From Calditrichaceae bacterium (GTDB lineage Bacteria; Calditrichota; Calditrichia; Calditrichales; JBFXGD01): DNA of 24,741 bases. Numbering within the stretch: the stretch's first letter is position 1; each line of letters opens with the position of its first letter. A program made the position numbers and the translations under genes. The stretch is from the NCBI GenBank assembly GCA_050173015.1, contig JBFXLE010000040.1, positions 1 to 24,741 on the forward strand, in the 5' to 3' direction. Below the pieces are notes generated by a model. The model was not told where the DNA came from. It ran no database searches and saw only the letters and a list, made by a program, of their open reading frames with translations. Shown one piece after another: positions 16,679-24,741 of the stretch.

Positions 16679-18979
16679 CTATAAGTCCATCTTCAGCCGG
16701 AAGTATATCTTATTGTCAGCAAGGTTATTTGTAACAATATATAAATTAAGAACTGATATGGATTTAATAGCGATACCATATTCCCATAATTCTTCATCCA
16801 ATGCTTCGAAATATATTGTATCAAATGATGGGATATTATAGGGCTTCAGATACGAAGCAAAACCTCCGACAGACATTCTGAGCGTATAAATCTTGGGAAG
16901 ATTAAAGAGTGTCAAGTCACACGTTAGATGCAGATAATCCCTTACATAGAAATCATAATTATCGAGAGTAAAGTATTCTAATGAACTTTCCTTTTCAAAT
17001 ATGGTCTTTTTTTGGTTGATAAAGTTCATTTCATTTATATAATCCGATTTATCCTGTTTATGCCAATTCAATTTGAAGTCGACCGACATGGGATATATAA
17101 CAGGATGGAAATGGCGGAGATCGATATTCACAATTGCCCTGTCTTCTGTTGCCTCTAAAACTTGTTCATCCTGGCGGTAATAACTGACAGAGCAATTCGT
17201 AAATGCTTCGCCATGATAGAGAACTGGATGATTATTTATGTAATCATGATTCTCAATATAATTTATTGTTATTCCGGCTTTATTATTGTGATATTTCTGA
17301 ATTAGAAAGTTTGGTAGATAGGATTCACTACTGTTGGATATACTGAAATCAGTCCGATTTTTTACAGGTCTTTGATATTCAAACACAACACCGGTATTGA
17401 CGCTGAAGTGTGAGAAAAGATCATGTGTGTAATAAATCGAATTCTCGACGGAATGATAATAATGCATGTCATCTTCGTGTGAAAAAAGGGCTGAGATCGA
17501 TTGTCCGGTTCTGTTATAATCAAAACCACCAAGATTACAAATACGGTCTTTAAGCTGTAATGTTAACCCCTTATACCTGCTTCTGATGTCATAAGATATT
17601 GTCTCTCTCTCAAAGGAATAACCGCCTTGCGCGAAAATGTTAAAAAGGTCATTGTTTAATACCTGATATTCCAATCCCAGAAAATGTCCATCAACTTTAT
17701 TAAAATGATACCAGTTAGAGAATTTGTTTATTTTTAGATTGCCAATAGAACCCGGCTGGTCATAAGTCAGCGGCAATAAATCAGTAAATAAAAACAACAA
17801 TGCGCGACGATAAAAAGGAGCATTAATAAAAACCCGGTCAATCGTTTTTTTGTGTTCTCGCTCAACATCCGACAAGGGGATTCTAAATACTTCATCTCTT
17901 TTTAAATCGATATCATAATTTAGGTTAGGTTCAATCGTCACTAATTGGTCCAGATTTATAAAAGGCTTATTCTGCGTGTCATTAATGGAATGATCGATAA
18001 AACTATTTTCCTGCGTATAATTATAAAGAATTCCCATAAAATTCATTTGTAATTTGAGTTTCGCAAATACCGGCAGGGTAAAAATCGAGTCCGTTCTGTA
18101 TTTCAAAAACAGAGATAGAGAATCTGCTGTTCCATCCTTGACAGAATTATTGCCAAACAGTTTTGCTTCCAGTAATTGGTGTGTTTGTTTTTTAAAGAAT
18201 AATTCGCCCGAAAGCAGGATCATTTTTGAGTTTTTAGGCGCGACTTTTATACAAATGACTGTATCTGTGCCTGAAAAGAATTGTCCTGATAATTTATACT
18301 CGTAATAATCCAGTGCGTTGTCATTTAGCGGACTTATAATTGAAAACCGATGCGCTTTAATCCGCTCATTATAGACATCAGTATTTTGATTAATGGCTAA
18401 CGCCTGATAGGGTACATTTTTCATGTGTGGAGGCATTTGTAAATTCAACACTGTTTCCTTATATGTATCCGGAGCTTGATAATATATGTTAGAAATAGCT
18501 TCAACCATTGCAAATAGTTTATTAGAATCTGCGGAGCTAAATGATGTTTTTGAATAGGCGAGAGCTTTGTAATATTCCAATCTATCCTTAAAATGGTTCT
18601 TTCCTGCAATCGCTTCCAGGATAAATCGTTCCACCCAATTGTATGCGTAAACCTGAATTGTTTCGCCTTCGACAGGTTTTGGAATTAACTCCACAAGAAC
18701 TGGATTTTTGACAAGATCGGCTTTAATGGTTTTTGTTTCATAACCTATATATGAAAATTCCAATATTTGTTCGTGTGATTCTAAATGGATTTCGAATTCA
18801 CCATCTGTATTTGAGATGGAACCCTTAAAAGTATTAAATATTTGGATATTGGCGTGAGGCAGGGGTTGTTTTGATTGTTGATCTATTATAATACCATTTA
18901 AAATTATTTTATCTTGTGCCTGTATCAATGAAGAGCAAAAAATAATAACAAACAGAATAACGCCAATACGAGGTATCAT
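16679..18979 (-). CDS. Outer-membrane protein with CarboxypepD_reg-like domain and DUF5686-like C-terminal region
   Basis: Signal peptide; GIIIDQQSKQPLPHANI...GSISNTDGEFEI...FSYIGYET; HFNKVDGHFLG and alternating aromatic beta-strand-like C-terminus; RBS GGAGG. Confidence 0.75.
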   Translation of the reverse strand: MIPRIGVILFVIIFCSSLIQAQDKIILNGIIIDQQSKQPLPHANIQIFNTFKGSISNTDGEFEIHLESHEQILEFSYIGYETKTIKADLVKNPVLVELIPKPVEGETIQVYAYNWVERFILEAIAGKNHFKDRLEYYKALAYSKTSFSSADSNKLFAMVEAISNIYYQAPDTYKETVLNLQMPPHMKNVPYQALAINQNTDVYNERIKAHRFSIISPLNDNALDYYEYKLSGQFFSGTDTVICIKVAPKNSKMILLSGELFFKKQTHQLLEAKLFGNNSVKDGTADSLSLFLKYRTDSIFTLPVFAKLKLQMNFMGILYNYTQENSFIDHSINDTQNKPFINLDQLVTIEPNLNYDIDLKRDEVFRIPLSDVEREHKKTIDRVFINAPFYRRALLFLFTDLLPLTYDQPGSIGNLKINKFSNWYHFNKVDGHFLGLEYQVLNNDLFNIFAQGGYSFERETISYDIRSRYKGLTLQLKDRICNLGGFDYNRTGQSISALFSHEDDMHYYHSVENSIYYTHDLFSHFSVNTGVVFEYQRPVKNRTDFSISNSSESYLPNFLIQKYHNNKAGITINYIENHDYINNHPVLYHGEAFTNCSVSYYRQDEQVLEATEDRAIVNIDLRHFHPVIYPMSVDFKLNWHKQDKSDYINEMNFINQKKTIFEKESSLEYFTLDNYDFYVRDYLHLTCDLTLFNLPKIYTLRMSVGGFASYLKPYNIPSFDTIYFEALDEELWEYGIAIKSISVLNLYIVTNNLADNKIYFRLKMDL

Positions 18980-18994
18980 TACCTTCCTCCATGA

Positions 18995-20083
18995 TCAATT
19001 ATTATTGTAAAATAAAAAAGTTATATCAAAGAAATAGCAGAGTATGTAGAACAAAAAACCAGTTATAAAAATAAAGGTCACTAAGCTTGAAAACACTCCA
19101 AAAAATAAATACAAGAATTTCTTTTTTCTTGTAATATTAACATCATTTCTTAAAAAAATATCAAATAAACATTTGAAAGAATTTTTTTGTAAATTAGGAA
19201 TTTCAATTAAATCCGTTAATATATAATAACCATCTAATTTTAAGAAGGGATTTATATTTAAAATAGTCTTTATACAGCTATAAAACAAAACAAGCAGAAT
19301 CATATTATAATACTTTAAATCCGTAATTAAAAATGAATTTATTAGATATACCAAAGAAATAAAACTTAGATCAGACATTGGACCCGCTAAAGATACAAGG
19401 ATTCTTTTGAATTTATTTGTTTCATGCCAAATATTTGTTGTATCAGTGAAAAACACCGGATGTAATAAATATAACCCTACTCCTATTCCTCTGACCTTCT
19501 GACCAAAATATCGGCAAGTAATTGCATGAGCTGATTCATGGAAAAAAGTTTTAAAAAAAACAAAGACAATAAAAAATGGATAAAACAAGGGTAGTGATTT
19601 TTGAAAAATATCGGCATCGACAACCGATGGAGAGATTTTTAAACCCCATATGACGAAATGAAAAAGCGAAAAGTTGATTATGATAAAGGAAGTAATGGTA
19701 ATAATTTTAACAAGCTTGCCACCGCAAATTTGCGCAAAGGTTTTATAATATTTATCAGAACTAAATGACCATATTTCTATATAACTTACTCTTTTCCATA
19801 TTGACTTCTTTTGGGCATACGCAACATTTGCAATTAAATTGCATTCAATTATCCTATTCACAAATAGAACTAAATTTTCATACTCGAATTTTATGTATTC
19901 TTGTTTTATTTTAACAAATATATCGTTTAAAGAAAGCGTACCATCCATCAAATCAAGAATGTATTTCCCAAATGCTGATATTTTTATTGTAATATTTTCA
20001 TTGTGGCTTACAATATAGGATTTAGCATCCATTTTTGTAATAACAAGGTTTTTTTCTAAAATTGGAATAAAATCCCTATCCAT
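18995..20083 (-). CDS. M50 family intramembrane metalloprotease with N-terminal RRE/PqqD-like domain
   Basis: HESAH (HExxH), AGPMSD, NINPFLKLDGYY; several TM helices; N-terminal ISAFGKYILDLMDGTLSLNDI; ATG 20083 preferred over TTG 20101. Confidence 0.85.
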   Translation of the reverse strand: MDRDFIPILEKNLVITKMDAKSYIVSHNENITIKISAFGKYILDLMDGTLSLNDIFVKIKQEYIKFEYENLVLFVNRIIECNLIANVAYAQKKSIWKRVSYIEIWSFSSDKYYKTFAQICGGKLVKIITITSFIIINFSLFHFVIWGLKISPSVVDADIFQKSLPLFYPFFIVFVFFKTFFHESAHAITCRYFGQKVRGIGVGLYLLHPVFFTDTTNIWHETNKFKRILVSLAGPMSDLSFISLVYLINSFLITDLKYYNMILLVLFYSCIKTILNINPFLKLDGYYILTDLIEIPNLQKNSFKCLFDIFLRNDVNITRKKKFLYLFFGVFSSLVTFIFITGFLFYILCYFFDITFLFYNNN

Positions 20084-20133
20084 AAACTGTATTCCCGACA
20101 AATAAATACGCCACTTATTACTAGAGAAAAGCT

Positions 20134-23788: not shown

Positions 23789-23838
23789 ATGGACACCTTT
23801 CGAGTTAAATAGTGTATAGATAAATTCGTGATTCTGAT

Positions 23839-24603
23839 TTATTCATGAATCTCTTTTATTTTCATAAGGTTAATATCTATTACATATTTTCTTTGAGAAT
23901 TATGATCAGTTATTCTCAAATAATTATCCGCAGGGTGTTTAGATAAACTATCTGAGGAAGATTCATCCAACTCATCTACATTATACCAGCGCGTCCACTG
24001 ATGAGGGCTTTGCTCAAGGCCACTTTTTAATAAATCAAGACACTTTTCATAAAATATTTTACTGTATTCTTTTGCATTGCTATTTGTAATCTCTCGTATT
24101 TCAAAATCAATGTTATTGTGTTGGATGTTTGTAATTACGCTGTAAATTGACGTTGGTGTTTTTTTTAAAAAGTAAGGAATGCTAGTTTTAACCAGATAAT
24201 TAAACCCAAAAATAAATGGTAAAGACACAAAATTTTTATTTTCTTCATTAATTGATTTATTCTCATCAAAATAAATAAAAACAATACCTTTGTTTTTTAA
24301 GATTTTCAACAATTTTCTCATTGATATAAAATCTTGTACCAAGATAAATTCTATATCTGCATCTTGAAAATCTTTTTTTATTAGAGCCTTGTAATAGCTA
24401 AGCCGTGACTGCCGACTTATAGTTAATGCATCAACAACGACATAAACAGTAGTTTTTAAATAGATGGAAAGAATAACCGGAGCTAATTCAAATACCCCAT
24501 AATGAAAAGAAATATAAATTTTACCATTGTCATCATTAGGCATTTGATTTAATTTTTGTGTGATTATCGTAGCTGCTTCTCTTATATATCTCGTTGCATG
24601 CAT
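23839..24603 (-). CDS. LpxL/lysophospholipid acyltransferase (LPLAT)-like protein; true start uncertain
   Basis: ISFHYGVFE (H-x4-E), VFIYFDEN, VSLPF, PHQWTRW match the lipid A acyltransferase-like motif order. Confidence 0.7.
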   Translation of the reverse strand: MHATRYIREAATIITQKLNQMPNDDNGKIYISFHYGVFELAPVILSIYLKTTVYVVVDALTISRQSRLSYYKALIKKDFQDADIEFILVQDFISMRKLLKILKNKGIVFIYFDENKSINEENKNFVSLPFIFGFNYLVKTSIPYFLKKTPTSIYSVITNIQHNNIDFEIREITNSNAKEYSKIFYEKCLDLLKSGLEQSPHQWTRWYNVDELDESSSDSLSKHPADNYLRITDHNSQRKYVIDINLMKIKEIHE

Positions 24604-24741
24604 GTTAATATTTTTGTTCTGCCTCAGAACCTTTTGGAATTTTCGGACAAATTTAATACTATGACTTTTTAGTTAACTTGCCAACTTTAAATTCTCAAAA
24701 TGACGTTCTTGTTTTGCCTGTTCTACCTTCAATTTTCTTTC

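Follow-up and report, generated by a model that had tools for sequence, protein, structure and literature searches.

A rare seven-gene azole-peptide system on a probably acquired low-GC island of a Calditrichaceae bacterium, with its acyltransferase gene split by an IS3-like element

The window analysed here, a 24,741-nt stretch of a Calditrichaceae bacterium that makes up the entire contig C40 of its genome assembly (G000; 4.34 Mb in 54 contigs), carries a cluster for a peptide made on the ribosome and modified after its translation (RiPP) of the azole-containing kind. This cluster is real, rare and conserved, and its set of accessory genes is unusual. We read it, with a probability of about three in four, as an island of low GC, ~8.7 kb in size and gained by horizontal transfer, with the genes for a system of the linear azol(in)e-containing peptide (LAP) type, in a rare and conserved seven-gene design whose acyltransferase gene is split in this genome by an insertion sequence (IS). 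The GC fraction of the island is 0.303 as compared with 0.419 for the genome, and the flanks of a related locus from an Ignavibacteriae metagenome-assembled genome (L008) have values of 0.31-0.34, like the island.

All seven open reading frames (ORFs) are read from the minus strand, one after another from 24603 to 16679, in agreement with an earlier note on this DNA that had claimed seven co-oriented genes. They encode, in order, the 3’ fragment of an acyltransferase-like protein (23839..24603; 254 aa, codons counted from an internal ATG), an E1-like partner of the SagC family (22736..23788; 350 aa, with an N-terminal winged-helix region), a SagD-type YcaO cyclodehydratase (21402..22733; 443 aa), a SagB-family FMN dehydrogenase (20631..21401; 256 aa), the precursor peptide (20410..20574; 54 aa), an M50 membrane zinc metalloprotease (18995..20101; 368 aa) and a DUF5686 outer-membrane protein (16679..18979; 766 aa). 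The intergenic gaps along the seven genes measure 50, 2, 0, 56, 308 and 15 nt, including the 2-nt and 0-nt spacing of the E1, YcaO and SagB genes that had been pointed out before.

The assignment to the azole-forming RiPPs is carried by the YcaO and SagB proteins, both above curated cut-offs, together with an adjacent precursor that has a Cys/Thr core, and the claim of a LAP-type cluster made from the sequence alone is thereby upheld. The YcaO protein scores 261.2 bits with TIGR03604 (cut-off 219.25) and matches PF02624 at E 3e-52, and a profile of its clade finds MusD (1e-21), TruD and LynD among solved structures. Its C-terminus, earlier described as Pro-rich, indeed ends in ...LPHPFA, and the C-terminal residues (...PHPFA) are invariant in all five aligned sequences. 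For SagB, the scores are 136.7 bits with TIGR03605 (cut-off 78.4) and E 9e-22 with PF00881. The E1-like protein matches the E1-like parts of LynD (8.5e-6), TruD and MusD, as well as MccB, in a sequence search of the Protein Data Bank (PDB). Sub-threshold winged-helix matches occur in this protein and in two of its orthologues, and the N-terminal winged-helix region is probably, judging from these matches, the leader-binding part.

The precursor gene is preceded by a ribosome-binding site, AAAGGAG, located 7 nt 5’ of its ATG. Its product combines a leader motif, FDL...SLEVE..EDR, with a core, CFGTFGTYGGCAGTFGCCG, that forms the end of the peptide and contains 4 Cys, 3 Thr and 7 Gly. When aligned with seven precursors from three related loci (L008, L066 and L067), it shared 21 invariant columns with them, and the leader and core motifs were kept in 8/8 sequences. 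Two of the invariant positions, Thr39 and Thr55 (in the numbering of the precursor alignment), are candidate acyl-ester sites. The genome holds a single copy of the precursor gene, placed after SagB, unlike the order in the other loci. We also considered that the product might be a thiopeptide or a member of another known azole class instead of a LAP-type peptide, to which the precursor gives an opening through its weak match to the thiocillin-family model NF033482 (E 7e-5, 22.9 bits). That match falls under the model's cut-off of 25, the seven conserved genes include no dehydratase or pyridine-synthase match in Pfam and NCBIfam scans, and the genes that flank the L008 cluster lie on the opposite strand, so that we regard a thiopeptide as very improbable.

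The last two genes encode envelope proteins. The protease passes the Pfam threshold for M50 (PF02163; 29.8 bits, cut-off 27.2) and has the motifs HExxH at residue 188 and NxxPxxxLDG at residue 282, along with several hydrophobic segments. Its best NCBIfam model is the daptide-type NF041824, where it reaches 110.2 bits as compared with the 300 required, over residues 28-351; on these scores it is not an equivalog of the protease of daptides, a class of RiPP. A search of PDB sequences gave no match at E<=1. The earlier note had proposed an M50 protease fused to a RiPP recognition element (RRE): the M50 part holds, and the RRE stays below threshold, with residues 28-70 at the N-terminus matching the PqqD model TIGR03859 at E 0.015 and one orthologue giving a weak winged-helix match. 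By its motifs and domain layout the protein is probably of the site-2-protease type with an extra N-terminal domain, and a leader peptidase; its true start may be the ATG at 20083.

The outer-membrane protein scores 98.5 with DUF5686 (PF18939; cut-off 39.2) and also passes CarbopepD_reg_2. Its structural model, with a predicted local distance difference test (pLDDT) value of 87.7, shows, after a signal peptide, a CarboxypepD_reg domain and a middle part rich in beta structure, with a barrel at the C-terminus. Foldseek matched this barrel to BamA, TamA, FhaC and CdiB at probability 1.00 with 8-12% identity, and in comparisons with barrel-only structures the template-modelling (TM) score on the target was mostly 0.45-0.55. 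The claim of an outer-membrane protein is thus borne out both by the family score and by the Omp85/BamA-like barrel of the model. Three DUF5686 matches exist in the genome, the best-scoring being another gene, on contig C4. The copy in the cluster belongs to a subclade of 14 proteins with 36-58% identity, while remaining DUF5686 matches are at <=26%, and by this grouping it is a cluster-specific paralogue.

For the first gene, an acyltransferase of the LpxL/LPLAT kind had been claimed, and here the likeness was confirmed by an LpxL/PatA fold and an H-x4-E motif and the integrity of the gene was not, the ORF being a 3’ fragment rather than a whole gene. The fold was studied on an AlphaFold2 model of the intact 331-aa protein of L008 (pLDDT 79.8; predicted TM score 0.80), for which all of the top 13 listed Foldseek matches were structures of PatA or LpxM; the best of them have E values from 3e-10 to 5e-9 and a TM score on the target of 0.53-0.68. 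An exhaustive HMMER search of 1.84 billion representatives returned 18 related proteins at E<=0.001, two of them close; one of the 18, P0039, is a clear Lip_A_acyltrans member. The His of the catalytic H-x4-(D/E) motif, one Phe and both Trp of P-x-Q-W-x-x-W are invariant in 18/18 sequences, one Asp being nearly so, and the form H-x-G-x-F-E (H-x4-E) is present in all five members of the clade, at residues 34-39 of the window fragment. The title of PDB entry 5knk names E127A as a catalytic-residue substitution in LpxM. Fold, invariant motif His and P-x-Q-W-x-x-W are what the clade has in common with PatA and LpxM/LpxL (PF03279); it differs in an identity of 14-16% to these structures, scores under the Pfam cut-off, no N-terminal hydrophobic anchor, an extra C-terminal three-stranded sheet in the L008 model, and a RiPP context.

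What such an enzyme acylates can be read in two ways. The LpxL/PatA-fold family is not known to act on ribosomal peptides. We tentatively propose, at somewhat less than even odds and from conserved linkage and fold, that the enzyme of this cluster would add a fatty acyl group to the peptide. Under the alternative explanation the peptide is left untouched and the acyltransferase remodels the producer's lipid A, or some other glycolipid of its envelope, for self-protection or for release of the peptide. This would agree with the closest solved folds, since LpxM acylates lipid A and PatA is a mannoside acyltransferase, with the structure neighbours in the Atlas, which are named LpxL/LpxP (TM 0.62-0.70 by query), with the lack of a detected peptide-binding domain in Pfam scans of the acyltransferase and with the presence of an envelope protein in the same cluster. 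However, the genome already has a separate, ordinary LpxL on contig C8, and the cluster protein is very divergent, as the small number of its relatives attests, and has no hydrophobic N-terminal segment. In addition, its gene comes first, directly before the precursor genes, in L008, L066 and L067. On balance we consider glycolipid remodelling rather unlikely, though it is the main rival to peptide acylation.

Two further observations concern this protein family. The Atlas cluster nearest to the L008 acyltransferase is commonest in Bacillota, which lack lipid A. Many of its distant LpxL-like relatives P0037, P0038, P0040, P0041 and P0047-P0052 have C-terminal extensions of 40-120 residues without a Pfam match. 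Fusions of the acyltransferase to an RRE were considered and dropped, since the tails at the C-termini of 10 distant relatives gave no PqqD or RRE match in Pfam, even with E values of up to 10 allowed.

The acyltransferase ORF of the window is incomplete because an IS3-like element separates it from its 5’ part. Intact relatives are 314-331 aa long, and the first residue of the window protein corresponds to about their residue 70. A tblastn search with the intact L008 protein (E 2e-13) traced the absent portion to contig C1, where it lies at 394103-394309, ~125 bases short of the contig end. Against P0035, a relative of 323 aa, this fragment covers residues 1-68 without gaps at 60% identity, and the window ORF covers residues 72-319 (54% identity); by these alignments, the gene is of ~320 codons when whole and its first 68 codons lie on C1. 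The window itself ends inside the element, whose right end occupies 24615..24741 on the minus strand and comprises the 3’ end of a second ORF and a terminal repeat ending ...GGCAGAACA. Directly beside it stands a 4-bp target-site duplication, AAAA on the gene strand (24611..24614), with its second copy at C1:394305-394308. The acyltransferase ORF starts 11 bases from the end of the element, and the native frame continues to the junction at 24614.

The same element recurs elsewhere in the genome. The last 127-130 bases of the window are found again at the end of C3 (99% identity) and in C33 (97%), and shorter, diverged matches to the right end, of 56-81 bases, exist in C2, C43 and C42. Past the acyltransferase fragment, C1 runs into a repeat common to the ends of C23 and C6 and to the inside of C42. 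When the ends were aligned, the element was found to begin TGTATTGG... and to end ...GGCAGAACA, giving TG...CA termini, and 4-bp duplications paired the flanks uniquely: C1 with C40 (AAAA), C23 with C3 (CAAT) and C6 with C33 (CAAA). The first ORF, as seen in the related copy on C42, encodes a HTH_Tnp_1 transposase (PF01527; E 7e-16), and a DDE second ORF was identified by eye. A HTH_Tnp_1 first ORF, TG...CA ends and a short target duplication are what we take to be IS3-family features. From the aligned ends and the unique pairing of flanks it follows that the element interrupts the acyltransferase gene at codon 69 and is oriented like the cluster. No other lesion was seen in either fragment. 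The element measures ~1.3-1.4 kb, and its three near-identical copies each break the assembly (C1/C40, C23/C3 and C6/C33). A diverged copy with stop codons lies at C42:18269-19607, and solo right ends of ~80 bases at C2:3843-3923 and C43:440-519.

Public sequencing runs gave glimpses of other populations; the four that were compared with the window all consisted of contigs, and a search for runs gave none of RNA. In run X3, from another study, a 955-base contig agrees with window positions 24065-24614, beyond which its remaining 405 bases differ from the window and do not enter the element; it fits an uninterrupted acyltransferase allele. A contig of run X2 has an overhang of 30 letters at window position 20273 that is identical to the left end of the element in reverse complement, which places the element between the precursor and M50 genes in another population.

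With its first gene split and 50 nt between that gene and the E1-like gene, the window cluster is likely to have lost acylation and may be weakly expressed. A working acyltransferase is most likely missing from it, and an acylated product is probably beyond its reach. A stronger version of this view, which we find quite plausible though short of probable, is that the cluster is a decaying remnant, in which the insertion inactivates the first gene and severs the downstream genes from their promoter, so that no product is made. Decay is favoured by the site of the insertion, at codon 69 of the gene that opens the cluster, and by the short gap from that gene to the E1-like gene, as well as by the overhang in X2, which puts the same element at a second site of the cluster in another population. 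Yet the other six ORFs are intact and both acyltransferase fragments align without frame breaks, which argues that the insertion is recent; the precursor gene has a ribosome-binding site of its own, and insertion sequences can carry an outward promoter.

The seven-gene design was found outside this genome as well. Among 5.8 billion proteins, the YcaO protein had only four close relatives (55-64% identity), all other matches being at <=27%, and three loci with close YcaOs were compared. In L008, the acyltransferase gene (331 aa) is followed by two precursor genes and the cluster includes E1, YcaO, SagB, M50 and the outer-membrane protein; L067 has the same gene set, and since it is 98.9% identical to L008 the two count as one lineage. 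L066 encodes an acyltransferase (314 aa), three precursors, E1, YcaO, SagB and M50, after which the contig ends, before the position of the outer-membrane gene. For two further lineages, the acyltransferases P0035 and P0105, the YcaOs P0005 and P0004 and the outer-membrane proteins P0053 and P0056 agree in the length of their longest contigs, 31,499 and 28,240 bases, from which we infer that the three genes are co-located there. An acyltransferase-like gene accordingly accompanies YcaO in 5/5 lineages, in two of them by inferred co-location. Close to home the system is scarce: a search of 40 related genomes gave no YcaO of this kind (0/40), and the clade-type acyltransferase occurs in 1 of 86 genomes sampled from the phylum, namely the genome of the window (E 1e-85), the matches in 64 other genomes of that sample being at the level of its ordinary LpxL or weaker.

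Several observations weigh against the picture of an acquired LAP-type system with an acyltransferase. The E1-like protein lies far under the NCBIfam cut-offs, with 62.8 bits for TIGR03603 (cut-off 187.65; E 4e-17) and 32.3 for TIGR03882 (cut-off 36.9). The acyltransferase fragment of the window has no Pfam family match, the L008 protein has no NCBIfam match, a phmmer search of PDB sequences with the 254-aa fragment gave chance-level hits (E 0.12 or worse), and P0035 scores 20.2 with PF03279, under the cut-off of 22.3, for which reason we speak of an LpxL/PatA-fold protein and not of a PF03279 member. No RRE or PqqD domain was found by Pfam in the acyltransferase or its distant relatives, and the solved relatives, lipid A and mannoside acyltransferases, act on glycolipids. 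The proposed tie between peptide and acyltransferase is drawn from gene linkage, and no result connects the two directly; a predicted complex of the intact L008 acyltransferase with its precursor scored 0.01 and 0.00, where 0.32 was the mark to reach, but in a prediction made without controls that speaks neither for nor against the tie. The operon structure gets no backing from promoter-like and terminator-like counts, which are at the level of shuffled sequences (49 as compared with 48.0, sd 6.3, and 6 as compared with 3.4, sd 1.9, respectively). Finally, a genome of the same genus (G001, contig C264; L071/L072) has the exonuclease gene that borders the island and, next to it as in the window, 1,218 bases from the 3’ end of the outer-membrane gene, at 88-89% identity, with the contig ending inside that gene. 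The island, or at least the outer-membrane gene, thus predates the strain, and absence of the cluster from G001 cannot be claimed given that the end of the outer-membrane gene is present; no other part of the cluster turned up in the G001 assembly, whose contig stops inside this gene. For the same reason an attempted empty-site comparison in G001 failed: the 339-aa Big_7 gene that lies upstream of the island was not found there, and the contig ends in the outer-membrane gene.

That upstream gene encodes a 339-aa protein with three Big_7 Ig-like domains (L070:12293-13312, on C1) and sits just outside the island on the opposite strand. On the other side, window positions 1-16400 have a GC of 0.443 and about a dozen ORFs of ordinary size, with an Exo_endo_phos nuclease at 15629-16396. 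At the island boundary, in the space that separates this nuclease gene from the outer-membrane gene's end, two convergent terminator-like hairpins occur at 16438-16581, the overall count of terminator-like sequences not exceeding that of shuffles.

Among known LAPs, also called thiazole/oxazole-modified microcins, the clusters for streptolysin S, microcin B17 and plantazolicin serve here for comparison by gene content. The cluster resembles these in having a separate putative E1-like partner, a SagD-type YcaO, SagB and a short precursor with a C-terminal core rich in Cys, Thr and Gly. It differs from them in its YcaO, which is at most 27% identical to YcaOs outside its five-member clade, and in the addition of an LpxL-fold acyltransferase and an Omp85-like protein. 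No ATP-binding cassette (ABC) transporter is among the seven conserved genes. The protease also sets the cluster apart from LAPs as treated in passages of a review (PMC10885120), where leader removal in LAPs is assigned to M103 TldD/E proteases, the M50 type is given for epipeptides and pearlins, and EpeP of the epipeptides is thought both to cleave and to export. With these RiPP proteases (the daptide type of NF041824, EpeP, and TglG/TmoG of pearlins) the window protein has in common a membrane M50 domain with HExxH and NxxPxxxLDG, but it reaches only 110 of the 300 bits of the daptide model. Compared with the Omp85 proteins BamA, TamA and FhaC/CdiB, the outer-membrane protein is alike in its C-terminal barrel and differs in its N-terminus, which is made of CarboxypepD_reg and a beta-rich DUF5686 part and not of periplasmic repeats.

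Lipidated RiPPs have been described, and the main text of a 2026 article (PMC13647313) presents selidamides, lipolanthines, goadvionins, lipoavitides and aphotorhaptins, all acylated by Gcn5-related N-acetyltransferases (GNATs); that main text has 0 instances of each of the terms 'LpxL', 'LPLAT', 'PlsC', 'lipid A' and 'azole'. Like these, the present system has an acyltransferase of its own in the cluster, and it differs from those in the main text by the LpxL/PatA fold of that enzyme and by the azole peptide. Literature searches over titles and the starts of abstracts, with supplementary tables outside their scope, returned no LpxL-type acyltransferase in any RiPP cluster; the same searches returned no described azole or YcaO cluster of matching architecture, which genome-mining supplements could nevertheless list. 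The main text of a paper on RiPP mining in Bacteroidales (PMC10352776) contains acyltransferase, M50, azole and SagB 0 times, and a search on DUF5686 gave nothing related by title. The suggestion of the earlier note that the accessory set is not that of the characterised LAP clusters agrees with these searches, and the set recurs in L008/L067 and, up to the contig end after the M50 gene, in L066.

A working model can be drawn for an intact cluster. Going by family membership, the E1-like protein would bind the leader of the precursor (54 aa in the window); YcaO, with ATP, would cyclise core Cys and possibly Thr residues to azolines; the SagB flavoprotein would oxidise these to thiazoles or methyloxazoles; and the membrane M50 protease would remove the leader at the inner membrane and may aid export. 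Two further steps are suggested by linkage and fold. The LpxL/PatA-fold enzyme would acylate the peptide at a conserved Thr hydroxyl or at its new N-terminus; acyltransferases of the PatA/LpxM type form esters. The Omp85-like DUF5686 paralogue would then pass the product across the outer membrane or protect the producer. Taken together, intact clusters might make the first lipidated azole peptides, acylation being the work of an LpxL/PatA-fold enzyme, with a product that is handled by, or aimed at, an Omp85/BamA-like protein, and with the DUF5686 paralogue as export channel or protective target copy; we offer this full scheme as a possibility about which doubt prevails.

Since its acyltransferase gene is split, the genome of the window is the wrong template for a study of this system, for which intact copies exist in L008/L067 and L066. 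If the proposal is true, acylation by an LpxL/PatA-fold enzyme would constitute a new route and a new product class beside the GNAT-acylated RiPP lipopeptides covered in the main text of PMC13647313, and possibly a new tool for genetically encoded lipopeptides. The combination of an M50 protease with a BamA-like barrel suggests a self-contained way in which a diderm bacterium may process and release a peptide without an ABC transporter.

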